Source: a candidate division WOR-3 bacterium (GTDB lineage Bacteria; Hydrothermota; Hydrothermia; JBDRYB01). From it: a stretch of 64,000 nt of DNA. The position numbers were made by a program, and so were the translations under genes. The notes below the pieces were generated by a model. That model did not search any database, was not told the DNA's origin, and saw only the letters and a list, made by a program, of their open reading frames with translations. This document shows, piece after piece, positions 1,810 to 62,969 of this stretch. Where the stretch lies: the NCBI GenBank assembly GCA_039803205.1, contig JBDRYB010000007.1, forward strand, positions 9,152-73,151. The letters are read 5' to 3'. Numbering within the stretch: the first letter of the stretch is position 1; each line of letters begins with the position of its first letter.

Positions 1810-3531
1810 ATGATGGAAATGGCCATACTGCTGATCTCAGCAGTGATAACCGTGCCGGAGGAGCCGGCGCAAGCAAGTGAGGCAGAGGCCGTAAGGCTCA
1901 CCGAGAAGGCCGTGACGAACATGGTCGCTGTGGCCCCACCGGTTATGATGACCTTTTCCAAGGATGATCTGGTGATGGTAGAGAGGGCACCTTCATGCCA
2001 GGACGCGCGGCTCGTCGCTGAGATCATAGGAGATAACGGTTCTCGCGAATACATGCCCTTTGCTGGCGCTGGATGGGTGTGGAACGAGGTTTATGACCCC
2101 ACATATCCTCACACGGATGACGGGTTTGACTCCTGGAACGAGATGAAGGCCGACGGCCTTGGAGCCCTCTGGGCGATCTACACGGGAACGACTCCCACAT
2201 ATACCATGGATACGATATTCGTGTTCTGCTCGGTGGATAGCGGAAATACCTGGATCTACAAGCTCGCGATATACTCAGACCTGGACACCTATGATCCATG
2301 GGTCGCGAGGCTTTCGGTTGACCGGGTCAACAACTGGGTCTATATCTCCCACATCCTGGCAAAAGAGGCCGGAGGGGGAAATGTTTGGCCTGGAACCATT
2401 TGGGTTACCCGCTTTCAGCATCTCGGTGGAGGCGATATAGCGAATCTCGGGACATACGAGTGCGATCCGCAGGGCTGGGGCGATATATACTTTAAGTGCG
2501 CTGTAGCCTGTGATGGTTCTGGTTCGGAGTATGTTTACCTGGGAGGGATAGACTGGATTAACGGCTACATGGATTACTACAGGAGCTCTGACAGGGGGGA
2601 GACCTGGAGATACATAACCTCGTGGAGCTTGGGGGACTACTGGACCAATGTTTTATCAGCTGCGCCGAGATACGGGGCATCAGGCGCTCTGATAGCCTGG
2701 ATTGATTGGGACGATGTCCAACGCGATTTCCGTTATTACTGGGCTGAGGTGACCAGCGCGGGAGAAACCGGACATTACTTCAGCCCCGGTGGAACAGGCT
2801 TCAGGGGGCTTTACGGCATAGCCGCGATCGGCAATACCTGGGCCGCGCCGTTTGAAGAGGAGGCTGGCCCCGCTAATTTTGATACCTACTTTTATTACTA
2901 CGATGGCTCAGCTTACTGGCTATACACATGGGACAACACGCCCGCGGATTGCCGCTCTCCCGCAATGGATGCCACACCGGAAAACGGTGGAAGATACTAC
3001 CAAGCCTTCTACAAGACCTCATCCGGAATGAGCGGAAGGCCCTACTTCTGCTGGGCCGAGGTCTCGGATATGTCCAGATGGTATACCTGGCCCTCCTGCG
3101 ATTACGATGTTCACGATGAGGATGCCATAACCGTTCAGGAATCCGTGCACTGGAAGTTCATAGATGTTGCGGCCCAGGACACAGGTGCGGGTGGGTATCT
3201 GCCCCACATCGCTTGGAGGAGAACCGAGGGCGCGGAAGCGGGAGGCGACCCCTGGCACTCTCGGCCGGGGACCATCCGCACAGGGGAGTCTCAGCCCGAA
3301 GGGGTCCTCTTCGCGGCCTTCGTGGGCAAGGGAATAGCTTACTCGGTTCCTGGCGAGACAAAAGCGATGCTTTCGGTCTACGACGCGACAGGAAGAACGG
3401 TTTCTAGGATAGAGTGCACCCTCTCCGGCAGGGGCGTTTTGGAGCTCCCGAGCCTGAACCAGGGGGTCTATTTCTTCAATCTCGCGACGGAGGGCTTCGG
3501 GACGAGAAGGGGCATATTCACCCTAATGTAG
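1810..3531 (+). CDS. Tandem paralog: secreted Asp-box protein with T9SS-type C-terminal domain
   Basis: SD GAGGAGAGG upstream; SVDSGNTW and SSDRGETW motifs; C-terminal LSVYDATGRTV...LNQGVYFFNL; colinear with the 3..1628 protein. Confidence 0.8.
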   Translation: MMEMAILLISAVITVPEEPAQASEAEAVRLTEKAVTNMVAVAPPVMMTFSKDDLVMVERAPSCQDARLVAEIIGDNGSREYMPFAGAGWVWNEVYDPTYPHTDDGFDSWNEMKADGLGALWAIYTGTTPTYTMDTIFVFCSVDSGNTWIYKLAIYSDLDTYDPWVARLSVDRVNNWVYISHILAKEAGGGNVWPGTIWVTRFQHLGGGDIANLGTYECDPQGWGDIYFKCAVACDGSGSEYVYLGGIDWINGYMDYYRSSDRGETWRYITSWSLGDYWTNVLSAAPRYGASGALIAWIDWDDVQRDFRYYWAEVTSAGETGHYFSPGGTGFRGLYGIAAIGNTWAAPFEEEAGPANFDTYFYYYDGSAYWLYTWDNTPADCRSPAMDATPENGGRYYQAFYKTSSGMSGRPYFCWAEVSDMSRWYTWPSCDYDVHDEDAITVQESVHWKFIDVAAQDTGAGGYLPHIAWRRTEGAEAGGDPWHSRPGTIRTGESQPEGVLFAAFVGKGIAYSVPGETKAMLSVYDATGRTVSRIECTLSGRGVLELPSLNQGVYFFNLATEGFGTRRGIFTLM

Positions 3532-3555
3532 GTCTTGTGCCTGCCCACATATTTA

Positions 3556-3585
3556 TTGCCCCGTCAACCGCGGAGGCCGTATAAT
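3556..3585 (+). promoter_or_regulatory. Sigma70-type promoter TTGCCC-N18-TATAAT, 6 nt before GTG 3592 (leaderless)
   Basis: Hexamers at 3556-3561 and 3580-3585; no SD. Confidence 0.65.
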
Positions 3586-3591
3586 CTGCGC

Positions 3592-4038
3592 GTGATCCTT
3601 TTACTCCTGGTGGCCGAAGGGCCGGAATCCACAGCGACCTTCCAGACCGAGTATTTCTCTTATGGAAGGCTCCAGATAACCATTCCGGTCCAATCTGTGG
3701 TTGACACAGTCAAGGGCACTGATTACACATGGTATTCGGTGAGGTCCAAGGCCTGGTCAGTTCCCCTGAACATCCTCCTGGGGTTCACCCTTCCCGGGAG
3801 GGGTTTTATTGACAGGGAGGATGTGATCGTCTCGGCCAGACAACGGATAAAGCTCGCGGGGACAAATGGCATGGCGATCTGGGGAACCTACAAGGACAAG
3901 CCTGGGTTTTGGTTTGACTTCACCTCCTCAAAGCTCTTCGGAAAGGATGTGTATCTCAGGGTATGGTATGAGCGAGCCTCGGAATCGGATACCGGGAAGC
4001 TCAGGATGACAATAGAAACCATCCAGAGCCTTCAATGA
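3592..4038 (+). CDS. Hypothetical exported protein
   Basis: GTG start gives MILLLLVA-EGPES; stop overlaps next ATG (ATGA). Confidence 0.65.
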   Translation: MILLLLVAEGPESTATFQTEYFSYGRLQITIPVQSVVDTVKGTDYTWYSVRSKAWSVPLNILLGFTLPGRGFIDREDVIVSARQRIKLAGTNGMAIWGTYKDKPGFWFDFTSSKLFGKDVYLRVWYERASESDTGKLRMTIETIQSLQ

Positions 4039-5006: not shown

Positions 5007-5045
5007 TCGTCCGGACGGAAAGGGCTAGAATATTCCCTCAGACTT

Positions 5046-7263: not shown

Positions 7264-9021
7264 ATGAAAAGATTTTTAGTTATTGGTTGGACTGCGTTTC
7301 TGGCATGCTCGGCACCCCTTGCTAGGGAGAGGTTTTACATCGGCTCGGAACCCGTTGATGTAGCCTTATGTGTTCGGGGTAGTAGGATGGGGCTTGAGGT
7401 CCTTGACCCCGGTCAGGCCCTCATGGAGCCGAGGGCTTTTGTCCGTTTTCGGGATGAGTGGGGGAGGATCAAGGATACCGTGTTCAGACTAGACCGCAGA
7501 GGCGAGGGTTTTTACAGGAACGAGTTGATATGTCCTGTTAAGTCTGGCCTCGCCCAGGTTCTCATAGAGGATCCCTCCGGCGCGAGGATTGATGGGGGAG
7601 GCCGTGGCATATTCAGATACATCGGGCATGAACGCCCGTGGCTTTTTGCCATGGCAATATCCGAAAAAGGGAGGCTCTCCAGCTCGGATAGGGTTGAGAT
7701 AGTGAGGATGTGTTGGAAGGAAATAACGGCGGGTGGTAACCCTATAGCCTATTATTACATCTGGGAATACGACACAGCTAGTTATTCCTGGGAGGACGCG
7801 AAACCAGTCTTGGATTCTGTTCTCAGGAAACCCAACGCTGATGCTCTTTACGCGGCTTTCAGGATTGCCGAGACATTCGGAAAGGACAGCCTTCAGGCCG
7901 CGTGCGCGGAGGATTTCGTCAGAAGGTATCCGAACGATCCTCGGGTAAATGACCCCATCCTTTATCTCGCGGAAAAATCAGGTAACCTTGAGGTATTCCT
8001 GAGGGAGCATCCGGACGATTCGGCCTGCAGTATAGCCGCGCTCTGGTCCCTGATGAGGAAAGCCATGGATGATAAGGACTACGAAAGGTATCAGGACTAC
8101 GACGAGGTGCTCTCTAGGATCAGGCATACCTCCCCTGAATCTTGGATTAGCTTAGCTTACAGGGCTCTAAGTCTATTGGATACAACAGGCATAGATGAAT
8201 TCACGAGGTGTCTCCGCGAGGCTGAGGCGAGGCTTTCCTGGGATACCTTGTTCTTGCTGTATCCTTTTGCGAAACCAGAGGGGAGGAAGAAGATTGAGCG
8301 GCGCCACCGTCAGATTTTTTGGGTTGCGAAAGCCGATTACCTCATGCACCTTGAAAGATACGAGGAGGCCTCCGTTTTCCTCGGGGCTTGTCTTGATTCC
8401 CTCGGGGAAAACGCTTATTTCTCCGCTGATGCTCATTTTCTCTCTTCGCTCATGAACGCGCAGGTGGAGTCAGGCGACACATCCAGCGCCCTCCTCACGG
8501 CGACATGGCTCAAATACAGGGGAGATTTCCCGTCAAACTGGCTTGATACGGTTCTCAGCTGGGCAGATCAGAGAACCCGAGATAGCCTCCTTGCCTTTGT
8601 GGCATCCCAGCTCCCTTTGGCTCCGGATCTTTCCGAAAGGACCCTTGAGGGAGACACAATACGCTCATCGGATCTCAAAGGCAAGATCGTGGTCCTGAAT
8701 TTCTGGGCAACATGGTGCGGGCCGTGCAGGGAGGAGATAAGCGCCTTGAACGAGCTGGTTAAGGAATATGAGAGCGATACCGGGGTCATTTTTCTCGCTT
8801 TGACAGCCGAGGACAGCGCGACGCTTTCCCGCTTTCTCAAGGAGACCCCCTTTCTGTATCGGCAATTGGTTGAAGCGGAGGAGGCCTTTGATGCATACGG
8901 TATAATGGCTGTCCCGACCCATTACATAATATCACCAAATGGGGTCATCCTGTTCAGAAAAATAGGGGGACTGAGGGAAGGCCCAGGGGAGCTGAGAAAG
9001 TTGATTGAAGAAGTTAAATAG
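7264..9021 (+). CDS. Lipoprotein with helical region and C-terminal TlpA/ResA thioredoxin domain
   Basis: Lipobox MKRFLVIGWTAFLA-C; VVLNFWATWCGPC; AVPTHYII. TATAAT at 7250-7255, 8 nt upstream. Confidence 0.85.
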   Translation: MKRFLVIGWTAFLACSAPLARERFYIGSEPVDVALCVRGSRMGLEVLDPGQALMEPRAFVRFRDEWGRIKDTVFRLDRRGEGFYRNELICPVKSGLAQVLIEDPSGARIDGGGRGIFRYIGHERPWLFAMAISEKGRLSSSDRVEIVRMCWKEITAGGNPIAYYYIWEYDTASYSWEDAKPVLDSVLRKPNADALYAAFRIAETFGKDSLQAACAEDFVRRYPNDPRVNDPILYLAEKSGNLEVFLREHPDDSACSIAALWSLMRKAMDDKDYERYQDYDEVLSRIRHTSPESWISLAYRALSLLDTTGIDEFTRCLREAEARLSWDTLFLLYPFAKPEGRKKIERRHRQIFWVAKADYLMHLERYEEASVFLGACLDSLGENAYFSADAHFLSSLMNAQVESGDTSSALLTATWLKYRGDFPSNWLDTVLSWADQRTRDSLLAFVASQLPLAPDLSERTLEGDTIRSSDLKGKIVVLNFWATWCGPCREEISALNELVKEYESDTGVIFLALTAEDSATLSRFLKETPFLYRQLVEAEEAFDAYGIMAVPTHYIISPNGVILFRKIGGLREGPGELRKLIEEVK

Positions 9022-9060: not shown

Positions 9061-11052
9061 ATGTTGCTATATGTGTTGTTGTCCGCGACCCTCTCAGGGA
9101 GGGTTCTGGATTCGGAAAACGGCTATCCGGTAACCGGCGCTACGGTGGTCCTTGAGGGCGAGGAGCGCGGCACCTACACGGACGACCGCGGCCTCTTCGT
9201 CATCAAGGATGCGCCGGAGCGCGCTCTCAGGCTGGTAATCAGGAGAATAGGATACGAGGAAAAGGCCGTGGACATACCCAGGCCAGCAACGGATCTGATC
9301 GTGGATTTGAGGCCAACGGGCGTCCTAAGCAGGGAAATAGTGGTAACTGGAACCGCTACTCCGCATATTATTGGGGAATCTCCCGTTCCGGTTCAGGTCG
9401 TATCCCGCTCCAGGATTGAGGCCGCGAACCAGGCCTCGGTTCCGGACGCCGTGAGGCTCCTGCCAGGCCTCATGGTCTCCGGAGGCGCTCCGAACGGCGC
9501 GACCGGGAGATACACGGTTATGCTTCAGGGTCTTCCCTCTCAGTATACACTTGCCCTTCTTGACGGCAAGCGTGTCCTCTCTGATCACATCCACACAGGC
9601 GTGAACCTTTCCCCTGTTCCGCTCATTCTCGTTGAGAGGATAGAGGTTGTTGAGGGGCCTGCCTCCGCGCTCTACGGTTCTGATGCGCTCGGAGGCGTTA
9701 TAAACATTATAACAACGAAGCCTTCACCAGTGCCGACATACGCCTTCAGAACATACTACGGGACATATGGCAATATTGATGCGGAGGGCGCTTTTGGCGG
9801 ATCAGGGCCGGGCGGGAGCTCCTATCTTCTCTCTCTGGGGCAACGCTCATATGACGGGAAAGAGCCAGTCCAGCGCTACCAGCGCCTCAGCGCTTCCTTC
9901 AAGGGAAACTGGAGGTGGTTCTACCTGAACGGCGATTACAATCAGGGAAACGAGGGCATTGACACGGCCGGATTGCCCACTGCCCGTTCCTGGAACTCCA
10001 TCCTTGAGGCAAAGACTGTTCTGGTGTCCGGGGAATCGCAACACGAGATAGGCGGATACCTCAACCACTTCTACAGAACCTATAAATCAGGTAACGCCCG
10101 GGAGGACAATTTCGTGGCAGAGGGAAACCTCAAGTCTCACTTCCACCTAGGTTTCAACCAGCTCTCCATCGGTGGTGCTGTCAGAAACAATCAGTTTGAA
10201 CGAACCTGCACCCCCTATCACTCTGAGATGATCTACGGCGTTTTCGCGGAGGACGAGATAAGGCCCAAAGAGCTTTTTGGTTTCGTGGTTTCCACGAGGC
10301 TTGACTATTATCCCGTTGGCGGTTTGCAATTCACGCCGAAGGCCGGCGCTTTGGTCAAGCCCGCCAGATGGTTGAACCTGAAGGCCTCTGTCGGAAGAGG
10401 TTTCAGGGCTCCCAGCCTCCAAGACAGATACGAGGAGCTGTTTTTCCACAACACCTACTACAGGAACGGGAACCCGGACCTGAGGCCAGAGGTATCCTTG
10501 AACTACTCAGCGGGATTTGAGGTTTTGCCCGTGAGCTTCCTGGCAATGGGGATTTCCGGGTTTTACAACGATATCACTGATATGATCGGGCTTCTTCCGA
10601 CACGTGATTCCCTGAACGGGTTCCCGATCTTGCGGCGCGAGAACATAAGGTCCGCGTTCACATGGGGAGTCTCTCCGAGGCTTCAGGCCGAGACCAGGTT
10701 CCTATCCCTGGCACTAGCCTATACTTACCTCAACGCGAGGGATGACAGCACGGGAATGCCACTTGCCTACGAGCCGAAACACACGGTATCCGGACAGATT
10801 ACGCTTGAATACGGCATTGCTGGCGCGAGCCTCACTGGCGAGTGGGTCAAGGACAGGCTTTATAGCGGAGCCATAAGGCTTCCGGATTACGCCCTATTGA
10901 ACCTTAACCTGTTCGCGAGGCCCCTCAACGGTGTCCAGGTCAACTTCAGCATCCAGAACCTCCTTGATGAGGAGTTCTTCACCTACGAGGAAGGCAAGGC
11001 TCCGCTTTGCGAGGGGAGGACCTTTGGAGGAGGCCTGAACATAAGGTTCTAG
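9061..11052 (+). CDS. TonB-dependent outer-membrane receptor (CirA/BtuB-like) with N-terminal carboxypeptidase-regulatory-like domain
   Basis: TLSGRVLD...GATV; IVVTGT; ERIEVVEGPASALYGSDALGGVINIIT plug motif; GNPDLRPE; terminal F. Confidence 0.92.
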   Translation: MLLYVLLSATLSGRVLDSENGYPVTGATVVLEGEERGTYTDDRGLFVIKDAPERALRLVIRRIGYEEKAVDIPRPATDLIVDLRPTGVLSREIVVTGTATPHIIGESPVPVQVVSRSRIEAANQASVPDAVRLLPGLMVSGGAPNGATGRYTVMLQGLPSQYTLALLDGKRVLSDHIHTGVNLSPVPLILVERIEVVEGPASALYGSDALGGVINIITTKPSPVPTYAFRTYYGTYGNIDAEGAFGGSGPGGSSYLLSLGQRSYDGKEPVQRYQRLSASFKGNWRWFYLNGDYNQGNEGIDTAGLPTARSWNSILEAKTVLVSGESQHEIGGYLNHFYRTYKSGNAREDNFVAEGNLKSHFHLGFNQLSIGGAVRNNQFERTCTPYHSEMIYGVFAEDEIRPKELFGFVVSTRLDYYPVGGLQFTPKAGALVKPARWLNLKASVGRGFRAPSLQDRYEELFFHNTYYRNGNPDLRPEVSLNYSAGFEVLPVSFLAMGISGFYNDITDMIGLLPTRDSLNGFPILRRENIRSAFTWGVSPRLQAETRFLSLALAYTYLNARDDSTGMPLAYEPKHTVSGQITLEYGIAGASLTGEWVKDRLYSGAIRLPDYALLNLNLFARPLNGVQVNFSIQNLLDEEFFTYEEGKAPLCEGRTFGGGLNIRF

Positions 11053-11103: not shown

Positions 11104-11754
11104 TTACTTCAATATACCCGGAGGCAGTTTATCGTATTTCGGCCCCTCAACTCCATCCAGAACAACGAATGAGGAGTCGCCTTCGGTCGCCCAGTAAGCA
11201 ATGTGCTCCAGGTTGTATGTTATCCTACCTATCTCATCGTAGAACTTGCCTTCCGCGGTGTCAACGACGAGGCTAAACTTCCCTTTGAGTTTCGCTTTGT
11301 AGAGAACCCGACCTTCTGGGATGATGTTTATGTCCGAGATGTCATCGTATTCTTTCCCAGGTTTCCCATCGTCAACCACAAGCTTCTTGGTTCCCTTTTC
11401 CGTGACATAGATGAGCCTTTCGCCTACCGGGCCACGGGCATGGGATGATGCCCTAGTCAGATCCGATGAAATGGAGGCAGATGAGGCTCCGGGGTAGGCA
11501 TACGCCGGCACAAAGGCTATGTAGGTTATCCTGTCGTATAAGGGGCCCTCGGTCCCATCAACTACGACGACCTGGCCTTCGCCCTTTTTCGCCACATAAA
11601 CCAGCTTCCCCGATGGTGAGAACATTATGGTTCCCACAACGGAGTAAAGGTAATCCCTTGATGTTCCCTCAAGCTCTTTGGCCATCTTTTCGGCCTTTCT
11701 CTCCAGACCACAAGAAACCAAACCCGCACAAAACAAAAGCAAAAATCTCTTCAT
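11104..11754 (-). CDS. Lipoprotein with four VVxDGxEGxxYD repeats, an in-frame insertion and possibly a truncated end
   Basis: Lipobox MKRFLLLFCAGLVS-C; repeats VVVDGTEGPLYD / VVDDGKPGKEYD / VVDTAEGKFYD / VVLDGVEGPKYD; TATAAT (11761-11766) 6 nt before ATG 11754. Confidence 0.7.
   Translation of the reverse strand: MKRFLLLFCAGLVSCGLERKAEKMAKELEGTSRDYLYSVVGTIMFSPSGKLVYVAKKGEGQVVVVDGTEGPLYDRITYIAFVPAYAYPGASSASISSDLTRASSHARGPVGERLIYVTEKGTKKLVVDDGKPGKEYDDISDINIIPEGRVLYKAKLKGKFSLVVDTAEGKFYDEIGRITYNLEHIAYWATEGDSSFVVLDGVEGPKYDKLPPGILK
11422..11499. repeat. 78-bp palindromic element inserted in frame in the lipoprotein gene
   Basis: Terminal inverted repeats GCCTACC (11422-11428) / GGTAGGC (11493-11499); internal hairpin GGGCAT/ATGCCC (11436-11453); coincides with a ~26-aa interruption of one protein repeat. 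Confidence 0.55.
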
Positions 11755-15439: not shown

Positions 15440-16969
15440 ATGAACCTTTTTCTGTGCTCTATCATCTTGTCCTCCTGGATGACATTCAGGGGGAACAACC
15501 AAAGGACAGGCCTTGTTGAGGGAAGGAGCAACTTCTACCAACAGGCGCCAGCTGTGCTCGCGGCTTGGGTGGTTCATTCAAGCGGCAATTCCGTGTATGG
15601 AGCGCCCATTACCTATGACCAGAGCGGCGATGGCAAAGAGGACATATACATCACATCCCACTCAAGTTATCCCTCCATTACCCTCTACAGGGGGCCTAGC
15701 GGTGGCATAATTTGGAATTGCCAGGACTACGCGGATGCCTATTACTCAACGCCTGCGCTTTTGCCCATAAACTATGACCCCTACCCAGAGGTTTTTCAGG
15801 GATTCCACAATTCCGGAGGCCTCAGGTGCTACGATGGTGGCTCCGGAACGAGGATATGGTGGGCTTACCTCGGCGGAATATCCTACTCGTCCCCTTTGGC
15901 GTTTTTTGACCCCTCTGGAAACCTCCGTGTAGCAGTGGTCAACGACGCTGGAGTGCTTTATTACCTGGATGCTGGCACAGGGGCCGTGCTCTGGTCATAT
16001 GCGGGTTCAGCCTCATCGTATTCGGCTCCAGCACTCGGGGATGTGAATGGAGATGGCACTCCTGAGATAGCGTATACCACAGCGAATCACATCTATGTCC
16101 TTGATCTATCAGGCAATCTCCTCTGGGATCTGGCATATGGTGCGAAGCCCTCAACCCCCGCGCTCTCTGATATGGATGGGTCGCCCGGACTTGAGATGGT
16201 GATCTATGATGCTGGGGCGGGTTGGGTTGCTGTTTTCGCCTTCGGAAACCCTATTCCTCTCTGGACATACTTCGTGGGCGCTTTCTCCGAGACATTCCCG
16301 CCTTCGCCGGCAGTCGGGGATGTGAACGCAAACGGGATCCCCGATGTGGTGATTCACAACACGAGGGTTGTCTATTGCGTGGAGAACGGGACTCTCGTAT
16401 GGTCGGTGAATGCCCTTGGGAATGATTATCTCTATGGTTCGCCTGTCCTGGCTGATCTTGATGGCGCTTCTGTTCACGACGGGGGAGCGCTTGAGACGGT
16501 CATAACCGGGGAGGATGAGAACTCGTATATCGGTTTGGTCTACTACATCCAGGACGATGGCTTACTCTGCTGGAGGTGGTCAAACCCATCGTATACGGAC
16601 TTTCCCGTGTATAACGAGGCCGCTCTCGGAGACCCCAACGGTGATGGCTGGCTTGAGATAGTGGTTGTGGATTACTCTTGCTACGCGTTCATACTAAGAG
16701 GGACCGATCCCCTTGAGAGCGGGGAGACCGTGCTTGAGACAGAGCCCACAAGGATCATCCCGACCCCTCGCGGCCTTTTGGTTTACGCGGTTTCACCTTG
16801 TCCGGTTTCCGTTGATTTCTACGATGGCTCGGGTAGGCTCGTTGATTCCTACAAAGGGAGCCTGAGAGCCGGGGAGAACCTGATAAAGCCGAAGACAGAA
16901 GGCATCCTTTTCTACAAAGCCATGATGGGCGAGGAGGAGATCAGGGGAAAGCTAGTTATCCTGGAATAA
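15440..16969 (+). CDS. Secreted FG-GAP/PQQ-type beta-propeller protein with T9SS-type C-terminal domain
   Basis: TTGATC-N18-TATAAT (15392-15421) and SD GAGGTG; WMTFRGNNQRTG; repeated S(T/A/P)P...GDxNGDG; C-terminal FYDGSGRLV...GKLVILE. Confidence 0.82.
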   Translation: MNLFLCSIILSSWMTFRGNNQRTGLVEGRSNFYQQAPAVLAAWVVHSSGNSVYGAPITYDQSGDGKEDIYITSHSSYPSITLYRGPSGGIIWNCQDYADAYYSTPALLPINYDPYPEVFQGFHNSGGLRCYDGGSGTRIWWAYLGGISYSSPLAFFDPSGNLRVAVVNDAGVLYYLDAGTGAVLWSYAGSASSYSAPALGDVNGDGTPEIAYTTANHIYVLDLSGNLLWDLAYGAKPSTPALSDMDGSPGLEMVIYDAGAGWVAVFAFGNPIPLWTYFVGAFSETFPPSPAVGDVNANGIPDVVIHNTRVVYCVENGTLVWSVNALGNDYLYGSPVLADLDGASVHDGGALETVITGEDENSYIGLVYYIQDDGLLCWRWSNPSYTDFPVYNEAALGDPNGDGWLEIVVVDYSCYAFILRGTDPLESGETVLETEPTRIIPTPRGLLVYAVSPCPVSVDFYDGSGRLVDSYKGSLRAGENLIKPKTEGILFYKAMMGEEEIRGKLVILE

Positions 16970-21233: not shown

Positions 21234-23105
21234 TTAATCCAGCCAAACCAGCTTGAGCATTTTTGACCATGAGCCTGCCCGCGCTCTCAGAAAATAGACC
21301 CCCGATGAGGGCAGGATCAGCTTAAACCAGTGGATGCCAGCCTCCATCTCCCCCTCAAAGAGCCTGAATATCAGCCTACCGGTGCCGTCATACAAACACA
21401 GGGAGACTTTGGTTTTCTCCGGAAGGGTTAATGATATAGGAGCCTCACCTCTCATCACGGACGCCACCCTCAGCGAAGGCGCTGTGGGGCAGGAGGACTC
21501 TTTTTCACCTGAAAATGGCTCCAGGTATAGCCTGCCATATCTCGCTGGGTCATAGAACTTAAGGACATCCTGGGGCCAGCAAGCCATTGTTCCGTGAGCT
21601 TGATCGAGATAAAATATGTGTATTCCAATAGAATCACCATCCGGAACGGGGTTTGCGCCTACGAACTGCGGCCCGGCGTCATAGCTCGTCAGAATCAAGG
21701 CGATCTCAATTGTGGTGTGGCCTCCGGTCTGGCCAAAGGCGAACGAGGATAAGCCCGATTCATACCAAGGCCCGTGGGTGAAGTCCGCCCTGAACCAAGA
21801 ACAGAGCCAAAGATCTGGGTTTATGAGCCTGTTAGCGCCCTCAGTGGTATCCGCGGAAGGCCAGGAACCGCCAGCGTCATCATCAAGGCAGACCCATGCC
21901 TCGGAAGAATCAGACCACCCGGTGTCCGCTATGGCATCGCAAGCCAGATATAGGAAAGAGGCATCGTGAAAAGCCCTCAGCGCGATAGAGCCGGGATAAT
22001 CTGTCCAGCCATCCCTTCCAAGATAATCTGAGGCGTCCCAGGAGGCAGAGCTATCCCATTCCCCAGGGCCGAGGGTCCCGTCAATCGTTGGGGCGTTCGG
22101 GAAATACGGAACCATTATCCTTCTTGCGACGGAATCGGGTATGACCCCGAACCGCGTTTGGCAAGTGTCATCCCCGGGGAAGCTGTCCTGGTAGCTGAGG
22201 AAGCCCATCGCTGTGTAAGGCCCTCCCTGTGGCCCTGCTGGCCAGCCTGAGAAGAGGATGTCAACCGAATCCCCCCTCTGGATGCCGCCCACTATGGTTT
22301 TCGTGTCCTCATAGAGGATTCCGGATGTATCGGATATGACGAAACCCGCTGAGATGTTATCCTGGATGTCCTGGTTCCCGGTGTTCACGATCCTGAGGGA
22401 TGGTTTGATCAGCGCCCCCTCCTCTTCAAGCGCCTTCGGCGATAATATGGCCGAAGCGGTTAGATTAACTGGGAGTGAAAGCAGGTATTCAACCGATATG
22501 TTGTCTATCGCAACATACCAATCCCAGTGGAGCCATGTGTGATCAAACCAGAGGAATGATACCTGCAGGCTCTCTGCCGGGAGCCAAGCCCAAAGGTTCA
22601 GGGTATCCCAGACCCCTGAACCTATATCCCAGTCATACACCGCGAGCGCTTGCCAGGCTCCCCAATCCGTCCCATCGTGAAAGCGAACCCGAACCTCAAA
22701 TGTGTCCTGGCCCTTGAAGTTCTGATAACCGAGCCCGTAAATGAGCCTAAGGGTATCATACCCAGCAACATATATGCTTGGCGAGATCAGCTCCTCTTCG
22801 GTCTCAGGGTTCCAGCCTATCGCGTCGTCATCGTAGCATGCCATATAGCTTCCGGGCGCAGGAGGCATTGCCGTGATGTGCCAGCCGGACGATGGCCTCA
22901 CCATCCAGCTCTGGCCATCCGCGTTGCTATCCCTTATTGCCCACCCGGGAGGAAGGCTACCAGACTCGAAGTCCTCCGAAAACATTGAGAGCCAGACCCC
23001 AGCTTTCGCTCCGGCCTTGGTCTCATGGGCATAGGTCGTTCCCTTGGGGAGCGCGGCGTCAGAGAGCATTTTTTCAGGAACAAGAGCCAAAAAGGCCAGA
23101 AGCAT
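21234..23105 (-). CDS. Secreted multidomain protein (cleaved-adhesin-like beta-sandwich, CARDB-like, CBM9-like) with T9SS-type C-terminal domain
   Basis: FSEDFESG..PPGW..D.NADG..W, LISP, IDNI; PTIDG.L...EW; C-terminal LYDGTGRLI...SSGVYFLR...KLVWL; TTGAAA-N18-TAAAAT-N6-ATG. Confidence 0.8.
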   Translation of the reverse strand: MLLAFLALVPEKMLSDAALPKGTTYAHETKAGAKAGVWLSMFSEDFESGSLPPGWAIRDSNADGQSWMVRPSSGWHITAMPPAPGSYMACYDDDAIGWNPETEEELISPSIYVAGYDTLRLIYGLGYQNFKGQDTFEVRVRFHDGTDWGAWQALAVYDWDIGSGVWDTLNLWAWLPAESLQVSFLWFDHTWLHWDWYVAIDNISVEYLLSLPVNLTASAILSPKALEEEGALIKPSLRIVNTGNQDIQDNISAGFVISDTSGILYEDTKTIVGGIQRGDSVDILFSGWPAGPQGGPYTAMGFLSYQDSFPGDDTCQTRFGVIPDSVARRIMVPYFPNAPTIDGTLGPGEWDSSASWDASDYLGRDGWTDYPGSIALRAFHDASFLYLACDAIADTGWSDSSEAWVCLDDDAGGSWPSADTTEGANRLINPDLWLCSWFRADFTHGPWYESGLSSFAFGQTGGHTTIEIALILTSYDAGPQFVGANPVPDGDSIGIHIFYLDQAHGTMACWPQDVLKFYDPARYGRLYLEPFSGEKESSCPTAPSLRVASVMRGEAPISLTLPEKTKVSLCLYDGTGRLIFRLFEGEMEAGIHWFKLILPSSGVYFLRARAGSWSKMLKLVWLD

Positions 23106-27636: not shown

Positions 27637-29340
27637 ATGTTTATCATCATGTGTCTCATATCCCAGACATACTGGGATGACAACTCAAGGGCGGATTTCC
27701 TTGGAGGGTCTGAGTTGTGGTATGCTGGTAGCTCTGAGAGGGTCTCTGGTCTAGGGGTCAATTTCTGGGCCTCTTCTTCTGGTCTAAGGGTTCTCGGCCA
27801 GGATTACGATCTGAACAACGATGCCTCTCTGGACGAGGCTGTTTTTGGAGCCGCGGCGAACACAGCGAGGATCCTCTACGGCCCTGGATTCGGCACTGAC
27901 ACGAGGTTCACAACCTCCTCAGCTGAGGGAATGGGAGTAGCTGATCTGAACGGGAATGGCGTTCCTGATGTTGTTGTCGGCGAGCAGTGGGGTTCCCAGA
28001 GCTACATATATTGGGACATGAACCCTGCATCGGTGACCCAACTTGGTTTTGGAGGAGCGTGCTACGGTGTTGCTATAGGGGATCTGAACAAGGATGGTTC
28101 GCTGGATTTGGTCCTCGCTGGCTATGGCGGTGTTCAGAGCAAGATATACTGGGGGCCGTGCTACACGACATATCAGGCGTTTGATAATGCCGACTCCTGG
28201 GACCCATTTGTGGCGGACCTCAACCTTGATGGGTATCCGGATATCGTCCTTCCGAGGCCTCTGTCCACCATCAAGATATTCTGGGGCCCTGGTTTCACGA
28301 GTTCCCAGGATATAGCCTTCTCAAGCACAAAGGCCGCGGCTGTTGCTGATTTGAACGCGGATGGCTGGCCAGATGTTGCTCTCGGCTCATATTCGGAAGG
28401 TGTTAGAGTGTATTTTGGCCCAGGCTTCTCCTCCTATTGGGCACTGGCCGGCATGACTAATGTGCAGGACCTTGAGATTGAGGATGCGGACGGAGATGGT
28501 TATCTGGACCTTGTCGCTTCCGGGGGCTCGGACGGCAAGGCGAGGATATGGTGGGGGCCAGCCCTTGTCAGCTTCACCGATGTCTCAGCCGCAGCCGGTG
28601 ACGGGGTTGATCTGCTGGACCTTGATAATGACGGGGATCTTGATATCGCAACCTCTTCTGGCACCTCATCCTTTTACATATACCGGAACAACGGCTCAAG
28701 GAGCTTCTCCTTGTGGCAGAACATCTCTCTACCCTCATGGGGAGGGGCTTATGTTGACCTCAGGAAATACGAGGAGATAGGAAATGCGTATACCAGAACC
28801 CCCTCTTTCGTCTACCTCTCCAGGATATTCACGGGATCCTCGGCATACAGGATGGACTCGCTGAGGTGGTGGGCATCTGTTCCCTCAGGAATGACGCTGA
28901 GGCTGTGGCTCCGCGCCTCAGACGATCAGACCACCTGGACCTCTTGGAAAGAGGTGTATAACGGCCAGGGCATCACTGACCCGGATTTCTTCTGCAGGAG
29001 GTTCTACCAGTATTCCGCTCTGGTAACAACGGATGGCAGAAGGACATCGGAATTTCACCTGGATTCATTGAGGCTCTATTACACTGATTGCGCTATAGGG
29101 CTTGATGAGTTCGGCCCGGCTGATTATCTGGTAATCAATGGCGGCCTCGCATACCTGAATGTCGTTGCCGAATGCGGTTATCTCCTGGTCTACGATATAA
29201 CCGGCAGACCAATCAAGGAATTCCACCTTGCTCGCGGGAAACACGCCATAGCTTGGGCCGAGGGGCTTCCCTCAGGCCTATACATCCTAATAGCTAGATA
29301 CGATGGCACAGAGAGAGTAAAATCGGCTTTCGTGAGATAA
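27637..29340 (+). CDS. Secreted FG-GAP/VCBS repeat protein with T9SS-type C-terminal domain
   Basis: About seven DLNxDGxxD...IxWGP repeats; C-terminal VYDITGRPI...LPSGLYIL. Confidence 0.85.
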   Translation: MFIIMCLISQTYWDDNSRADFLGGSELWYAGSSERVSGLGVNFWASSSGLRVLGQDYDLNNDASLDEAVFGAAANTARILYGPGFGTDTRFTTSSAEGMGVADLNGNGVPDVVVGEQWGSQSYIYWDMNPASVTQLGFGGACYGVAIGDLNKDGSLDLVLAGYGGVQSKIYWGPCYTTYQAFDNADSWDPFVADLNLDGYPDIVLPRPLSTIKIFWGPGFTSSQDIAFSSTKAAAVADLNADGWPDVALGSYSEGVRVYFGPGFSSYWALAGMTNVQDLEIEDADGDGYLDLVASGGSDGKARIWWGPALVSFTDVSAAAGDGVDLLDLDNDGDLDIATSSGTSSFYIYRNNGSRSFSLWQNISLPSWGGAYVDLRKYEEIGNAYTRTPSFVYLSRIFTGSSAYRMDSLRWWASVPSGMTLRLWLRASDDQTTWTSWKEVYNGQGITDPDFFCRRFYQYSALVTTDGRRTSEFHLDSLRLYYTDCAIGLDEFGPADYLVINGGLAYLNVVAECGYLLVYDITGRPIKEFHLARGKHAIAWAEGLPSGLYILIARYDGTERVKSAFVR

Positions 29341-52468: not shown

Positions 52469-53371
52469 ATGTTTGGATATATCATAGCAGCGACCATAGG
52501 GCTCAGCGCGGAGCCCGCGAAGGTGGAGAATCCAGGCATACCAGGAAAGGACGAGCTCAGATACCACAGCCTATTTGAGGACGGCCGCGGGTATATCATT
52601 GGCTGGACATCCTATCCTGCGTATGTAGGCGTCAGGTTCAGGGTTCCTCTTTCCGGAGGCAACAACGCCATAAGGATAGACAGCGTGATGGTGAATTACA
52701 GGTGCTACACCACCGGGACCAAGGAGGATACCCTCTATATCTACGATGATGCCACAGGGCCGAAACCAGGAAACCTGATACGCACCATACCCTTCCAGTT
52801 CAGCATAAACACGGCTGGGTGGTATGTGATCAATGTCCCTGACGGTATGGATACCCTCTACAAGGGAGCAACCGACACCGTCTTTCTGTGGACTGTTCAA
52901 ACCGCGAGGAAGATCACTGGCGACACAATAAAGAGGGGAACTGATAGCTCAAACGCGGATCCATACACGACCGGATATAACTACTACAGCTTGGATGGCT
53001 CCACCTGGAATGACTTCTATGGTGCGATACCCTCGGTTCCCGGCATAGATTGGGTTTATACCCTCTGGTATAGCCCGCTGAATGTGGATGTGGCTGAACT
53101 CCCTTCGGTGAGCCACTTCTTCTTGCAGGGCGTATCCCCCAACCCCGTGAGGGGCAGGGCAAGGGTAAGTTTTGGCCTACCGACCGGTTCCCATGTTGAC
53201 ATAGCGGTATATGATGCTGGCGGCAGAAGAGTGATGACCGCTTTCTCAGGAGACCTTGGCCCAGGCGGGCACTCTGTTCCCCTTGAACTCGGGGGATTGA
53301 GCGAGGGCGTTTATTTCCTGAACCTGAGAGCTGGAACCGAGTCTTCTACCGCCATGTTCATAGTGAAATAG
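52469..53371 (+). CDS. Secreted protein with T9SS-type (FlgD-Ig-like) C-terminal domain
   Basis: C-terminal LQGVSPNP...VYDAGGRRV...LSEGVYFLNL...MFIVK; own promoter and terminator. Confidence 0.82.
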   Translation: MFGYIIAATIGLSAEPAKVENPGIPGKDELRYHSLFEDGRGYIIGWTSYPAYVGVRFRVPLSGGNNAIRIDSVMVNYRCYTTGTKEDTLYIYDDATGPKPGNLIRTIPFQFSINTAGWYVINVPDGMDTLYKGATDTVFLWTVQTARKITGDTIKRGTDSSNADPYTTGYNYYSLDGSTWNDFYGAIPSVPGIDWVYTLWYSPLNVDVAELPSVSHFFLQGVSPNPVRGRARVSFGLPTGSHVDIAVYDAGGRRVMTAFSGDLGPGGHSVPLELGGLSEGVYFLNLRAGTESSTAMFIVK

Positions 53372-53434: not shown

Positions 53435-53968
53435 TCAGGGCGCTATCACCAGGCCTCCGCCGCCCCGGAATATCGGGCCCGTAAGCGAGCCCTCTGAGAA
53501 GTCCCTCGCGTCCGGGCGGGCCGGAACGGTCATGTAATCAACACCGAGAACCAGATCAACCCCCCATTTCCCGAATACCAACAAGGTGCCCAGGCTCGCT
53601 CCTCCCCCAAACCCCCAACTCGTGAACGATGTGTCAGGCCAACTGACCCACGAGTGGGGAGCACCGAGCTCAAGAAGGGCATATGGCTTGAAAACCGGAA
53701 GCCCCAGCAAAAGCCCTACCTGCACGAAAACAGGCATGGATGTGAGGGTGAGGGAGTCGTGCTCTTGCCTGAATGCCCAGAAATCTGCCCCATAGACCAC
53801 GCTCGCGGGGCCAAAGGAGCTGTATGAGCCCAGGGCCCTTATCTCGCCAAATGGCCTCGGGGAAGGCTTTGCGCCAGGGACGAGGTCATCAAGCGAGGCC
53901 CCGCACATGAAATAAGAGGCACCGCCATCAATGGAGATATAGAAAGCTGAGAAAAGCAGAAGTGTCAT
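53435..53968 (-). CDS. Small outer-membrane beta-barrel protein (8-strand type)
   Basis: Alternating amphipathic strands, FKPYA..LG, WGFGGGASLG; TTGCCA-N18-TAGAAT-N6-ATG. Confidence 0.65.
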   Translation of the reverse strand: MTLLLFSAFYISIDGGASYFMCGASLDDLVPGAKPSPRPFGEIRALGSYSSFGPASVVYGADFWAFRQEHDSLTLTSMPVFVQVGLLLGLPVFKPYALLELGAPHSWVSWPDTSFTSWGFGGGASLGTLLVFGKWGVDLVLGVDYMTVPARPDARDFSEGSLTGPIFRGGGGLVIAP

Positions 53969-56118: not shown

Positions 56119-57099
56119 TTACCTCACTATGTTCAGTGTTTTCGTGCCCATATCGGACCAGAGGACTGCTGTGTAGACGCCAGGCTTCAGGGATGGCAAG
56201 GAGACCTCGTGGGTGCCCGCAGAGAAGCGCCCTGAGGCCAGGGTGGTGACCTCACGGCCAGCTATGTCGTATAGGGAGAGGCTCAGAGAGCTCTCCTCAG
56301 GAAGGCTGAAGAATAGCCTGCCGCCCTTGAGGAAGAGGTCAAGACCCGGAACCAACACGGTGCTCTCTGATACGCCGAGGTCTATGAAGTGGACCTGCTT
56401 TGACTGAAGCGCCTCCTTTGTGGTGTAATATTGAACCCATATCGCCGCATCAAGGCTGTCCCGGTTCCATATTGTATCGGTTGAGGTCATCTTGTAGACA
56501 AGATGGAAATGCTGTTGTTCGCCAGCGTTAAACACGGTGAGGGAGTTTCCGGTTGTCTGAGAAAGCATGGTCCTGGTGAAGTAATCCGCTTTTGTCCCGT
56601 TTGAATTGGCCTGAATGTTTCTCTCCGTTATAACCGCGAAGAGCCTGGGTGAATATGAAGAGTTTATGTTCTGCTCAAGAATTACATCGCAGTCCAGGAG
56701 GACGGAGTCGTTACTCAGCCTGGCGTTGACATTCTCTATCCTGAGAGGCGATGGGATGGTCTTGCGGGAATTCACGCCTGACATATACCAGTTCAGGGTT
56801 TGGCCCACATCGGTGTAGGCGCCCGTGTCAGCTATGACGCCATCAATCCAAACCGTTGGAACATAGTAAATAGCGTAATAGCTGAACCTTACTCCAGCAG
56901 TCCCGCACCTACCTTGGATGTAGCTCATCACAGTGACCGTGTCCTTCATCAGCTTCTTCAGGCTATCTACGGCCATTATAGCATAGGGGCAGTATGGACA
57001 TGTCCAGGTGGAGAACTCCTCAACCAGAACGGACCTCTGCGCGGCTAAGGCACTGCCAGCCGCGACCAGCATCAGCGCTGTTGCGTATAGCTTTTTCAT
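56119..57099 (-). CDS. Omp28-like thioredoxin-fold protein with T9SS-type C-terminal domain
   Basis: Canonical signal peptide; VLVEEFSTWTCPYCP, YVPTVWIDG; C-terminal LGVSE...LYDIAGREV...LKPGVY; SD AGGAGG. Confidence 0.82.
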   Translation of the reverse strand: MKKLYATALMLVAAGSALAAQRSVLVEEFSTWTCPYCPYAIMAVDSLKKLMKDTVTVMSYIQGRCGTAGVRFSYYAIYYVPTVWIDGVIADTGAYTDVGQTLNWYMSGVNSRKTIPSPLRIENVNARLSNDSVLLDCDVILEQNINSSYSPRLFAVITERNIQANSNGTKADYFTRTMLSQTTGNSLTVFNAGEQQHFHLVYKMTSTDTIWNRDSLDAAIWVQYYTTKEALQSKQVHFIDLGVSESTVLVPGLDLFLKGGRLFFSLPEESSLSLSLYDIAGREVTTLASGRFSAGTHEVSLPSLKPGVYTAVLWSDMGTKTLNIVR

Positions 57100-59732: not shown

Positions 59733-59757
59733 GCTCAGATGATAATCCAAGCGCGCG

Positions 59758-60426
59758 CTACCCCTCAATCAACCCATCCCTCAGCCGGACTATCCTCTCT
59801 GCCCTCCTCGCTATCTCAGGGTCATGGGTCACTACGATGATGGTCTTGCCTGCTTTGTGCAGTTCCGAGAACAGGTCCATTATCTCCGCGCCGGTTTTGG
59901 AATCAAGGTTTCCGGTTGGCTCATCAGCGAGGAGGATCTCGGGATCATTTGCCAGGGCCCTGCCTATGGCAACCCGTTGGCGCTCGCCCCCTGAGAGCTC
60001 GGAGGGATTGTGGCGCATTCTGTCCCCTAGACCAACTTTTTGCAGGATCTCGGCGGCCCTCCTTCTCCTTTCGGCTAGAGGAACGCCGGCGTAGACCATT
60101 GGCAGGCCGACATTGTCCAGGGCGCTCATCCTCGGCAAAAGGTAGAAGTTCTGAAATACAAAGCCTATCTTGCGCCTTCTTATTTGGGCAAGATCGGGCT
60201 CGCTGAGGCCGTGGACCTCCTGGCCGTCAAGGATGTATGTCCCGGATGTTGGGGTCTCAAGGCAACCGAGTATGTGCATCAGGGTGCTCTTGCCTGAGCC
60301 AGAAGGCCCCATGATGGAGATGTATTCTCCTCGGTCAACAGAAAGGTTAACCCCCCTGAGGACATGCAGCTCAACCTTTCCGAGCATGAATATCTTGTGG
60401 ATGTCTCTGGCGTCTATGAGCGGCAC
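59758..60426 (-). CDS. ABC transporter ATP-binding protein (MacB/LolD type)
   Basis: GPSGSGKST, LSGGERQRV, LADEPTGNLD, VTHD; TTGCGA-N18-TATAAT-N6-GTG. Confidence 0.93.
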   Translation of the reverse strand: MPLIDARDIHKIFMLGKVELHVLRGVNLSVDRGEYISIMGPSGSGKSTLMHILGCLETPTSGTYILDGQEVHGLSEPDLAQIRRRKIGFVFQNFYLLPRMSALDNVGLPMVYAGVPLAERRRRAAEILQKVGLGDRMRHNPSELSGGERQRVAIGRALANDPEILLADEPTGNLDSKTGAEIMDLFSELHKAGKTIIVVTHDPEIARRAERIVRLRDGLIEG

Positions 60427-60522
60427 GATCATATTATAACCTACTTAATGCACGAATCGCAAGTGCTTTTCTGGCGAGGGATTCAGGCTCTCAGAGGGTT
60501 GGCCGAGAGGCAAACGCCGGAA

Positions 60523-61716
60523 CTACAGTCTCACCCCGCGGCTACTCACCGGCGGCCTTCCTCTCTTTTTCTCCTCACCTGGCTTTCCTGGCTCCTTCTT
60601 GACCTTCACCCTTGTGCCATCCTTTATTTTGACGAGAACAGAAGCAGGGCCTGTTATGACCTGATCCCCCTCTGAAAGCCCCTCTTTTACCTCAGCCACC
60701 CCCTCACCGACAACCCCGAGCTTAACCGGGGTCCTGACTGCCTTTCCGTTCTTGAACACATAAACCACATCTTGGTTCTCATAACTGCCGACAGCAGTAA
60801 GAGGAACAACGATAACCGAATCAACCCTCTCGGTTATTATCTCGCACGAGGCGCTCATCCCTGGCAAAAGCCCTTTCGGAACCTCATCAAGAAACACCTC
60901 AACAGGATAAGAAACCGCTTGTTGAACTGATGACAGGGATGAGCTGGTGGTCGGAACACCGCTCCTCGTCCCAACCACGCCCCTGAAGACCCTTCCGGGG
61001 AAGGCATCTATCTTTACCCTCACATCTTGGCCAGGCGCCACATCAACGACCTCTGTCTCAGATACATCCGCCTTGACTATTGCCCTGCTCATATCCGCGA
61101 CGACCATTATAACGGAGCCGGATATGTTAACGGTTCCAGCGATAACCTGTTCGCCTACCTCCATGTTCACGGCAACCACCTCCCCATCCACAGGGGATGT
61201 GATGAATGCCTTTGAGTATGTTACTCTTACTTGGCCCAATTGGGCTTTGGCCGCGTTTATCTGGGCCTCAGCGGCCCTGAAGGCGGACTCAGCCTGTTCA
61301 AACTGGCTCTTTGAGATAAGCCCTCTCTCGTAAAGGGCCTTTGTTCTGGCGTAATCCTCTCTCAGCTTCGCCAGGTTTGCCTCCTGCGCGGCAAGAGAAG
61401 CCTGGGCCGCCGAGACCTGTTCCCTGTAGACTCTCGGATCGACGACGCAAAGGGTGTCACCTTTCTTTACCCTATCTCCCTGCCTTACCCTTATTTCAAC
61501 GATCCTCCCCATGATGTCCGAGCCGATATTGACCTGGTTTAGGGCCTCTATGGTGCCCTCTGCCCTGGCTATCCGCTCAACAGAACCCCTTGCCACGCTC
61601 TCAACCCTGACCTCAGGGGTCCCTCCCGCCCTCTTTCTCATGTTCACGAGGACAAGGATGAGGACGAAAAGGACGATTCCTCCCACTATGGCTATCTTTT
61701 TCCAGTGTTTTTTCAT
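60523..61716 (-). CDS. Efflux periplasmic adaptor (MacA/HlyD family)
   Basis: N-terminal TM, V..GD.VKKGD, coiled coil, I.SPVDG, LLPGMSA, GLSEGDQV. Confidence 0.92.
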   Translation of the reverse strand: MKKHWKKIAIVGGIVLFVLILVLVNMRKRAGGTPEVRVESVARGSVERIARAEGTIEALNQVNIGSDIMGRIVEIRVRQGDRVKKGDTLCVVDPRVYREQVSAAQASLAAQEANLAKLREDYARTKALYERGLISKSQFEQAESAFRAAEAQINAAKAQLGQVRVTYSKAFITSPVDGEVVAVNMEVGEQVIAGTVNISGSVIMVVADMSRAIVKADVSETEVVDVAPGQDVRVKIDAFPGRVFRGVVGTRSGVPTTSSSLSSVQQAVSYPVEVFLDEVPKGLLPGMSASCEIITERVDSVIVVPLTAVGSYENQDVVYVFKNGKAVRTPVKLGVVGEGVAEVKEGLSEGDQVITGPASVLVKIKDGTRVKVKKEPGKPGEEKKRGRPPVSSRGVRL

Positions 61717-62969
61717 CTCAGCTCCTCCATTACTCCAACCGCCAGCTCAAGCCTCCTGGCGGCAAGGTAAAGGTCATAATCCGCCGAGACCACAGCCAAT
61801 TCAGCATTTACAAGGGCTTCCTCCGCGTCAGCGAAGTCTGCCTGGCTAGCCACGCCCAGCTGGAACTGAGCCACAGTAAGATCATATGCCTCTTTGGCGG
61901 CTTCGTATGCCGAACGGGCCATAATCCTGTTGTCCTGCGCGTTCATCAATGCCCAGTAAGCATCCTCAACATCCTTCTGCACAGCCAGGGCTGAGGCCAG
62001 GAGGGAATATTCTCCCGCAGAAAGCGCATCGCGTTCGGCCGCCACGCTGAAAGGGTATCTCGTCATGCCGAAGCTCAACTGCGCGCTTATTCCAGAGCTG
62101 TATGTGTAATCATCCGGGTTCAGGCCCGGAAACTCTGCCCTGTAATAGCGCCAGTAAACGCCGAACCTTATCTCAGGCAGAAATGTAAGTGCTTTATACC
62201 AGAAACCTACCCTCTGAGAACTCAGGGTCTTTTTCTGCTGGATGAAGTCCTGTCTGCGCTCCAGGGCTAGCATCTTCAGGGAATCAAGGGAACCTGGGGA
62301 TGTGTCGGGGAGCCCAGTGGGCTCAGAAACGACCACTGGCCTTCCAGGAGGCAAGCCGAGGAGAACGAGTAGGCCGGATTCCGCTGATGCCAAGGAGCCT
62401 TTCGCTACCGATAGCTCGTATTCCGCTTGATAAAGGGATGCTTCTGCCCGCCTCAGTTCCGCCAGGGTCGCATCCCCCAGCTCATACCGGGCTTCTATGA
62501 GGGTGTATTTGTGTCTCGCTCTTTCAAGAGCCTTTTGTCTGGCCTCGGTGGTTTTCTTCGCCTTGAGGAGGCCAAAATATGCCTGATCAACCTGATAAAC
62601 CGTCTGGAGCCTCTGCCTCTCGTAAAGAGCCTTTTGACCCCCTGCCTGGGCCTGGGACGAGAGGGCACCATATACGGCTGATGGGCTGAAAAGGGGCTGA
62701 GCGATGGAAAATGTGAGGCTGTATCTCCTTATAGTGTCTCCCCCGGGGACGAACCCGTAGGCCCCCATATCGGAATAACTGCCCTCTAGGCTTGCCTGAG
62801 GGGCATAGGTAGCCCAAGCGCCCCGAGCATTCCAGGCCGATGAGGAAGCTGTTTTGGCCTGGGCAAGGAGGGATGGGTTGGCCTCGAGGGCCATCCTTTC
62901 GGCCTCCCTGAGATCCAGATATAGGGTGTCGTCTAAGGCCGCCAGGAAGACCAAGAACATGCTATCCAC
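61713..62969 (-). CDS. TolC family outer-membrane efflux protein
   Basis: ALEANP, QPLF, AYFGLL, RYELG, FQLG twofold OEP repeat; start GTG 62969 or ATG 62960. Confidence 0.88.
   Translation of the reverse strand: MDSMFLVFLAALDDTLYLDLREAERMALEANPSLLAQAKTASSSAWNARGAWATYAPQASLEGSYSDMGAYGFVPGGDTIRRYSLTFSIAQPLFSPSAVYGALSSQAQAGGQKALYERQRLQTVYQVDQAYFGLLKAKKTTEARQKALERARHKYTLIEARYELGDATLAELRRAEASLYQAEYELSVAKGSLASAESGLLVLLGLPPGRPVVVSEPTGLPDTSPGSLDSLKMLALERRQDFIQQKKTLSSQRVGFWYKALTFLPEIRFGVYWRYYRAEFPGLNPDDYTYSSGISAQLSFGMTRYPFSVAAERDALSAGEYSLLASALAVQKDVEDAYWALMNAQDNRIMARSAYEAAKEAYDLTVAQFQLGVASQADFADAEEALVNAELAVVSADYDLYLAARRLELAVGVMEELR

Follow-up and report, generated by a model that had tools for sequence, protein, structure and literature searches.

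Very short, uncharged N-terminal leaders on predicted exported proteins of WOR-3 bacteria, and their uncoupling from loss of the signal recognition particle

For proteins exported through Sec and processed by signal peptidase I (SPase I), the signal peptide is usually held to require a basic n-region and at least about 15 residues. Signal peptides of Escherichia coli have a median length of 22 and a minimum of 15–16 residues (PMC5963308). Signals bind to SecA in a groove that is shallow, and mature-domain sequences add to targeting (PMC8082313; PMC5963308), and the prl translocons of E. coli export precursors with defective or absent signals (PMC5963308). In Bacteroidetes, Gln is exposed on at least 48% of the proteins cut by SPase I (PMC5837995), a Q-rule that is also the subject of PMC10653852, and the signal recognition particle (SRP) has been described as nearly ubiquitous (PMC7987157). 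Here we analyse a 64,000-nucleotide stretch of DNA (the window) from a candidate division WOR-3 bacterium of the class Hydrothermia (GenBank assembly GCA_039803205.1, contig JBDRYB010000007.1, positions 9,152 to 73,151 of the forward strand), in which nine proteins begin with a short hydrophobic leader lacking Lys and Arg. Such short starts are real and phylum-wide, and hundreds of predicted natural precursors, the essential BamA among them, fall far below the usual limits. The leaders are probably minimal Sec/SPase I signals handled by ordinary machinery.

The nine N-termini listed in a first-pass annotation of the window were confirmed at 1810, 3592, 9061, 15440, 23105, 27637, 52469, 53968 and 62969/62960. 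In all nine, Lys and Arg are absent before and inside the hydrophobic stretch, which starts at residue 2–3. Eight of the starts are confined by in-frame stops 3–20 codons upstream. The stops said to exclude longer N-termini at 9061, 23105, 27637 and 53968 do lie close by, at 13, 3, 7 and 3 codons, with zero start codons intervening at 9061 and one TTG at 53968 that would add 2 residues. A stop also lies 8 codons upstream of 62960, where a GTG at 62969 would add 3 residues, and others lie at 7 codons for 1810, 10 for 52469 and 20 for 3592. The less constrained start is 15440, whose frame is open for 44 codons upstream but which has a Shine-Dalgarno sequence.

All nine had been taken as probable exported proteins, and for seven of them export-type domains back this assignment. 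The 663-residue TonB-dependent receptor (9061..11052, plus strand) carries a 9-residue uncharged leader directly before a CarboxypepD_reg-like domain, and an AGGAGG Shine-Dalgarno sequence precedes its start; because its Pfam domains begin at residue 10–11, there is no space for a longer signal. A paralog of this receptor with a canonical signal aligns at a 15-residue offset. The TolC-family outer-membrane efflux protein (61713..62960, minus strand, 415 residues; PF02321 and TIGR01844) has a leader of about 8–9 residues, and a choice-of-anchor J/cleaved-adhesin protein (21234..23105, minus strand, 623 residues) also has a short leader ahead of its matched domains. Two FG-GAP propellers were identified by domain matches, one of 567 residues (27637..29340, plus strand), whose 9-residue leader ends in Ser and is followed by Gln, and one of FG-GAP/PQQ type with 509 residues (15440..16969, plus strand), a leader of about 11 residues and a GAGGT Shine-Dalgarno sequence. 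The remaining two of the seven have C-terminal tails like those of type IX secretion system (T9SS) substrates. In the protein of 573 residues (1810..3531, plus strand) the tail is weak (TIGR04183, E 7.5e-4) and the 11-residue leader includes one Glu, whereas in the protein of 300 residues (52469..53371, plus strand) PF18962 is above cut-off, the uncharged leader has 14 residues and the Shine-Dalgarno sequence is AGGAGG. The former belongs to a pair of tandem paralogs (1-1628 and 1810-3531) with near-identical short leaders, the start of the first lying just upstream of the window.

For the other two proteins the assignment is less secure. The protein starting at 53968 (53435..53968, minus strand, 177 residues, 8-residue leader), previously called a beta-barrel, has zero Pfam or NCBIfam matches, and its description as a probable small outer-membrane barrel comes from a weak feature look-alike, a cluster with 13% OMP_b-brl. 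The 148-residue protein at 3592..4038 (plus strand), with a GTG start and an 8-residue leader, likewise has zero family matches in Pfam and NCBIfam and is predicted to be exported. The mRNAs of both are probably leaderless, with TAGAAT 6 nt before the ATG of the former and TATAAT 6 nt upstream of the latter. TATAAT-like boxes 5–8 nt before starts are found in the window at 3592, 7264, 11754, 18364 and 53968 and in about 445 of 2084 gene calls genome-wide, partly as a product of the start picker described below; they suggest that leaderless mRNAs are frequent in this genome.

The assembly comprises 2.32 Mb in 50 contigs and is rated 95.9% complete. Genes (2084) were called with a home-made caller whose start picker weighs Shine-Dalgarno sequences and -10 boxes, and 1547 of them form a soluble-type set (more than 100 residues, no later transmembrane segment, closed 5' end). 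The short class was defined by a short hydrophobic start without Lys or Arg in residues 1–9, a rule that is not exhaustive, recovering six of the nine window proteins; internal Met positions under the identical rule served as control. Short uncharged hydrophobic starts were found in 280 of the 1547 genes (18%) versus 116 of 7906 controls (1.5%). No earlier in-frame ATG, GTG or TTG exists for 190 of the 280, and 202 have a strong Shine-Dalgarno sequence, or a -10 box 5–8 nt upstream, a figure that is not independent, as the start picker used these features. Of 64 frames with T9SS-like C-terminal tails, selected blind to the N-terminus, 35 had a short start and 14 a basic one, while the other 15 fitted neither description, among them fragments, frames with open ends and several that narrowly missed the rule; a stricter first rule divided the same frames into 30, 14 and 20. 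Among 20 members drawn at random from the 274 outside the window, 10 had a Pfam match in the first 300 residues, nine of exported type (including SurA and LolA) and one a chemoreceptor, which is a false positive. BamA, Skp, SurA and LolA of the host genome all carry the short form. These figures bear out the claim that the lineage employs a minimal N-terminal signal on proteins obliged to cross the inner membrane.

Lipoproteins are exempt from the short form. A basic n-region accompanies 77 of 81 lipobox matches genome-wide, and one of the four uncharged ones is convincing by eye. This exception (G000:C6:7097-7936) is a lipoprotein with an 8-residue uncharged signal. The window offers internal controls in seven lipoproteins called with a basic n-region, one at 7264..9021 on the plus strand and the others starting at 11754, 18364, 21233, 23813, 44542 and 56032. 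Eight had been counted before; the eighth, an open reading frame with a SpoIID domain ending at 25376 on the minus strand, can be read as such only from an upstream start. A further control is the Omp28-like protein (56119..57099, minus strand), which does have the canonical signal peptide ascribed to it, basic and then followed by Gln. This protein has a CxxC motif, a sub-threshold match to Omp28-related selenoproteins and a close paralog on contig C3. Lipoproteins presumably retain the basic n-region since lipidation and SPase II would need a stably anchored N-in helix.

Other genomes were compared through BamA, measured as the maximum number of residues that the available in-frame start codons permit ahead of the first POTRA strand, in 66 genomes chosen by family, not at random, out of 201 searched, so that kin are not independent. 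The limit does not exceed 17 residues in 20 of 23 Hydrothermia genomes; in other classes the same holds for 18 of 34 genomes with SRP and for 0 of 9 without it. Some short leaders contain a single Lys (7 of the 23 Hydrothermia genomes, read by eye). Skp is patchier than BamA, being short by eye in about 5 of 25 Hydrothermia genomes and, among the others, in 2–3 of 26 with SRP and 0 of 14 without it. Skp/OmpH frames are about 310 residues long across the phylum (G000:C5:80071-81015, loci L140-L204), approximately twice the Pfam domain length. Over all retrieved loci, short starts make up 38 of 424 soluble-type genes in Hydrothermia, 46 of 567 in SRP-bearing and 4 of 146 in other SRP-less genomes, counts in which three SRP-less families are included under SRP-bearing and some false positives are visible. 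A DNA-pattern census for cross-genome counting was dropped, the best pattern giving 25 true cases among 40 matches (host genome only). A quick SecY tree covered 46 rows from WOR-3 and 5 from outgroups. With the BamA state of the rows read by eye, 5 changes are needed versus 16.5 after shuffling, and at least 3 of the short-state changes are forced by well-supported branches. As read from this tree, the short state was gained or lost several times within WOR-3. Among 30 genomes of other phyla, reached by way of previously retrieved loci, BamA was matched in 26 and its N-terminus was readable in 25, with zero short by eye.

In the host genome the hydrophobic core consists mainly of Leu, Ile, Phe and Val and ends at residue 7–12 in 250 of the 280 short-class members, which is partly forced by the selection rule. 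Directly after the core stands Ser, Ala or Gly in 60% of cases, and Gln follows at the next position in 23%, versus 2.2% Gln in bulk (n = 280). An anchor-free test gave [S/A/G]-Gln within residues 7–15 in 72 of 280 leaders versus 73 of 2262 internal hydrophobic stretches. Among Gln-anchored cases, Ser, Ala or Gly occupies the apparent -1 in 67 of 95, and a cut before Gln would release 7–13 residues in 86 of 95. Canonical and short forms occur within the same paralog families and share the same mature start, with offsets mostly of 3–15 residues among the alignments listed; in one family, the same Gln-started sequence follows a basic signal of 16 residues or an uncharged one of 9 or 10. Short signals do not replace canonical ones, as basic signals coexist with them in the same genome and the same paralog families. 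It is a matter of observation that the starts, at this frequency, are placed on exported-type proteins and stand where paralogs and orthologs have their canonical signals. The small residue and Gln at the shared mature start fit SPase I cleavage, and we lean towards leaders that are cleaved rather than left in place.

We therefore favour, at a probability of roughly 0.6, minimal, h-region-only Sec/SPase I signals handled by ordinary machinery. Such a signal would consist of Met and about 6–10 aliphatic residues, sometimes with a single Lys, and would usually be closed by a small and a polar residue, often Gln. SecA would bind the hydrophobic stretch, the lateral gate of SecY would open, sequences of the mature protein would help targeting, and the single LepB would cut after the small residue. 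Because 7–10 residues cannot span the bilayer as a helix, the peptide may be extended or its uncharged end may enter the membrane. Given the shallow groove of SecA and the contribution of mature domains to targeting, a short hydrophobic tag could suffice. We infer both export and cleavage of the short-leader proteins from their sequences. The host genome encodes one SecA, one SecY, one LepB with catalytic Ser/Lys, TatC and deformylase (the last found by family search though missed by a regular-expression motif; such motifs for LspA, Lgt, trigger factor and others were uninformative). A second route reading an N-terminal signal is not supported, as the short leaders contain neither a twin-arginine motif nor a lipobox, and no Arg at all, although TatC is encoded.

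Several observations weigh against these minimal signals. SPase I normally disfavours a large aliphatic residue just before the cut and Leu or Ile at -3; here, -3 is Leu or Ile in 70 of the 95 Gln-anchored cases, and a large aliphatic residue stands directly before Gln in 23 of 280 leaders. About two thirds of the class (185 of 280) have no Gln mark near the end of the core. A PF05096-type glutaminyl cyclase was found in 0 of 5 genomes, so that Gln may serve as a polar cap instead of marking a cut. The host genome also encodes three M28-family proteins, which could conceivably include an animal-type cyclase. No change found in SecY, SecA or LepB would explain the trait, with LepB compared within the class only and SecE, SecG, SecDF and trigger factor outside the comparison. 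Finally, the leaders are well below the E. coli minimum of 15–16 residues (PMC5963308).

The first-pass annotation had held that a minimal signal implies an adapted SecA/SecY/SRP/LepB system, and had called for inspection of LepB, SecA and SecY for lineage-specific changes. One such change exists, an Arg at the start of TM10 of SecY in 36 of 36 Hydrothermia sequences but in none of the 34 from other WOR-3 or the 60 from outgroups. No change found follows the short signal (LepB compared within the class), and the claim of an adapted system is not supported. All six isoleucines at the positions that we take to be the SecY pore ring are kept relative to E. coli. The TM10 Arg marks the class, not the signal, and was rejected as its cause; in one SecY (L003:1285-2601) it is residue 399, where others have Ser, Thr or Ala, and an acidic residue where TM5 ends could be its pairing partner. 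A plug Val, presumably matching the prl site Ser68 of E. coli, was rejected as well, being common to outgroups and present also in Ignavibacteria with canonical BamA signals. The acidic TM5 signature does not follow the short signal either, since families f16, f21 and f29 are short with an outgroup-like TM5. The preprotein-binding domain of SecA carries an insert of about 105 residues, which KSB1, Ignavibacteria and Gemmatimonadota share, and loss of the zinc-binding tail is patchy; the C-terminal zinc-binding motif is absent from one SecA (L004:196-3231) and several others of Hydrothermia, but family f3 and the majority of the other WOR-3 examined retain it. Two residues that we assume to be the pocket Ile of E. 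coli LepB are Val here (aligned within Hydrothermia only, 12 of 30 loci). SRP loss does not track the signal, as discussed below, and SRP-bearing relatives with an ordinary-looking SecY use the short signal too.

A bolder proposal is that WOR-3 uses an undescribed class of export signal, of 7–12 uncharged residues, too short for a membrane span and outside the textbook n-h-c model. It would be read by a targeting factor or would initiate head-in at Sec, the whole peptide entering the membrane, and would coexist with canonical and lipoprotein signals, having arisen or been lost repeatedly, in a class whose membrane-protein insertion would likewise do without SRP. We consider this proposal tentative and on balance doubtful.

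An unlikely alternative accepts export through Sec and denies removal by LepB, so that the peptide would stay as a small hydrophobic tether or be trimmed by another periplasmic peptidase. The many leaders without a Gln mark, the bulky residues before Gln in a minority and the near absence of a c-region would suit it. Against it, the small residue and Gln are located at the apparent cleavage site of canonical paralogs and orthologs. Moreover, the soluble carriers LolA, Skp and SurA and the outer-membrane barrels leave the inner membrane in E. coli, and their short-leader counterparts would have to do the same.

The short peptide might instead be read by an unrecognised targeting factor or route, such as a dedicated chaperone or an mRNA- or ribosome-based device, that delivers the protein to the translocon. 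A signal under the known limits, the exclusion of lipoproteins (77 of 81 basic), the clustering of the trait on the SecY tree and the handling of membrane proteins by Hydrothermia without detectable SRP would all be accommodated. No candidate factor emerged, none having been specifically sought, and the swaps between short and canonical forms in paralog families, together with the single-Lys intermediates, resemble a relaxed continuum on one pathway. We regard such a factor as quite improbable.

A strong SRP54-family match was found in 0 of 57 Hydrothermia genomes (best E 2.8e-7). Outside the class (n = 144), 128 genomes have a match at E 5e-59 or better, 5 near 1e-40 to 1e-46, 3 a weak one and 8 none, and the three intermediate genomes inspected among the five all lack the Ffh M-domain. 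Searches for SRP RNA were positive in 87 of 104 other genomes but in 0 of 47 from Hydrothermia, and FtsY did not turn up in any Hydrothermia genome searched. A second group of families (f13, f19, f23, f25-f28) likewise yielded no Ffh, FtsY or SRP RNA. Single absences call for caution, as YidC is missing in this assembly, probably through an assembly gap, yet present in 45 of 47 Hydrothermia genomes and in a genome of the same genus. SRP loss in Hydrothermia is well supported, in the sense that these components were not found in the genomes searched.

These absences, together with the prevalence of short BamA in the class, make it tempting to see the short signal as a consequence of SRP loss, in that the signal might be free to shorten once SRP no longer competes for hydrophobic N-termini. 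The BamA counts speak otherwise, with short limits in 18 of 34 SRP-bearing WOR-3 genomes and in none of the nine SRP-less ones outside the class; the short signal is therefore not restricted to SRP-less genomes. Genome G153 has the Ffh M-domain and SRP RNA, yet its BamA limit is 10 residues, and Skp is canonical by eye in 20 of 25 Hydrothermia genomes. SRP loss neither predicts nor is required for the short signal, and the two traits are uncoupled; as a requirement it is largely refuted, and as the origin of the short signal it is very unlikely, though it might still influence how frequent such signals are. It is hardly credible, finally, that the true N-termini are longer (through wrong starts, unusual initiation or read-through of a stop) or that the proteins are cytoplasmic: the gene caller is home-made, one of the 20 random members is a chemoreceptor, and an earlier start within 20 codons would add Lys or Arg in 41 of the 280 genes, including host BamA with two TTG codons before its start, but all three stops occur upstream (TAA 114, TGA 101, TAG 65), at most 5 codons away in 95 and at most 10 in 158 of the 280, BamA orthologs show the same pattern in many genomes, and nine of the ten Pfam-matched random members are of exported type.

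The first-pass annotation had named the short signal as the best candidate in the window for an undescribed system. The literature searched, mostly titles and abstract openings among the matches listed and without supplements, holds no description of such short signals. Within the same scope there is no description of SRP loss in this lineage, on which supplementary tables of genome surveys might bear; this loss is a separate, second surprise. The uncoupling of the two traits is the new point of this analysis, and it redirects the search for a mechanism away from SRP. The canonical paralogs beside the short ones are built-in controls that make the minimal requirements of a Sec signal directly testable. 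Our counts also suggest that a large part of the phylum's envelope proteome may escape prediction tools.

Compared with known systems, the leaders resemble classical Sec/SPase I signals in their N-terminal hydrophobic core, the small residue at the apparent -1, the classes of substrate, their interchangeability with canonical signals in paralogs, and the presence of SecA, SecY and LepB. They differ in their length of about 7–13 residues, in having no basic n-region (or one Lys) and almost no c-region, and in Leu or Ile rather than Ala at -3. Judged by sequence, the short signal thus fails two defining features of that family, the charged n-region and a length of at least 15–16 residues. Bacteroidetes signals are of full length. 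Like the Q-rule substrates, the short-leader proteins are enriched in Gln right behind the signal and many have T9SS-like C-terminal tails (64 matches), but Gln is found in about a quarter to a third of them as against at least 48%, and the 5 genomes searched have no PF05096 cyclase. With lipoprotein signals of the Sec/SPase II type they share a short hydrophobic signal and, probably, the use of Sec, whereas the short leaders have no lipobox Cys and the lipoproteins here are basic. A translocon of the prl type would account for tolerance of a reduced signal, but the pore-ring residues are unchanged here and the plug Val is common to Ignavibacteria with canonical signals. Class III signals (type IV pilins and archaellins) are also very short, being charged leaders cut ahead of the hydrophobic stretch on the cytoplasmic side, whereas in the leaders described here nothing precedes the hydrophobic stretch.

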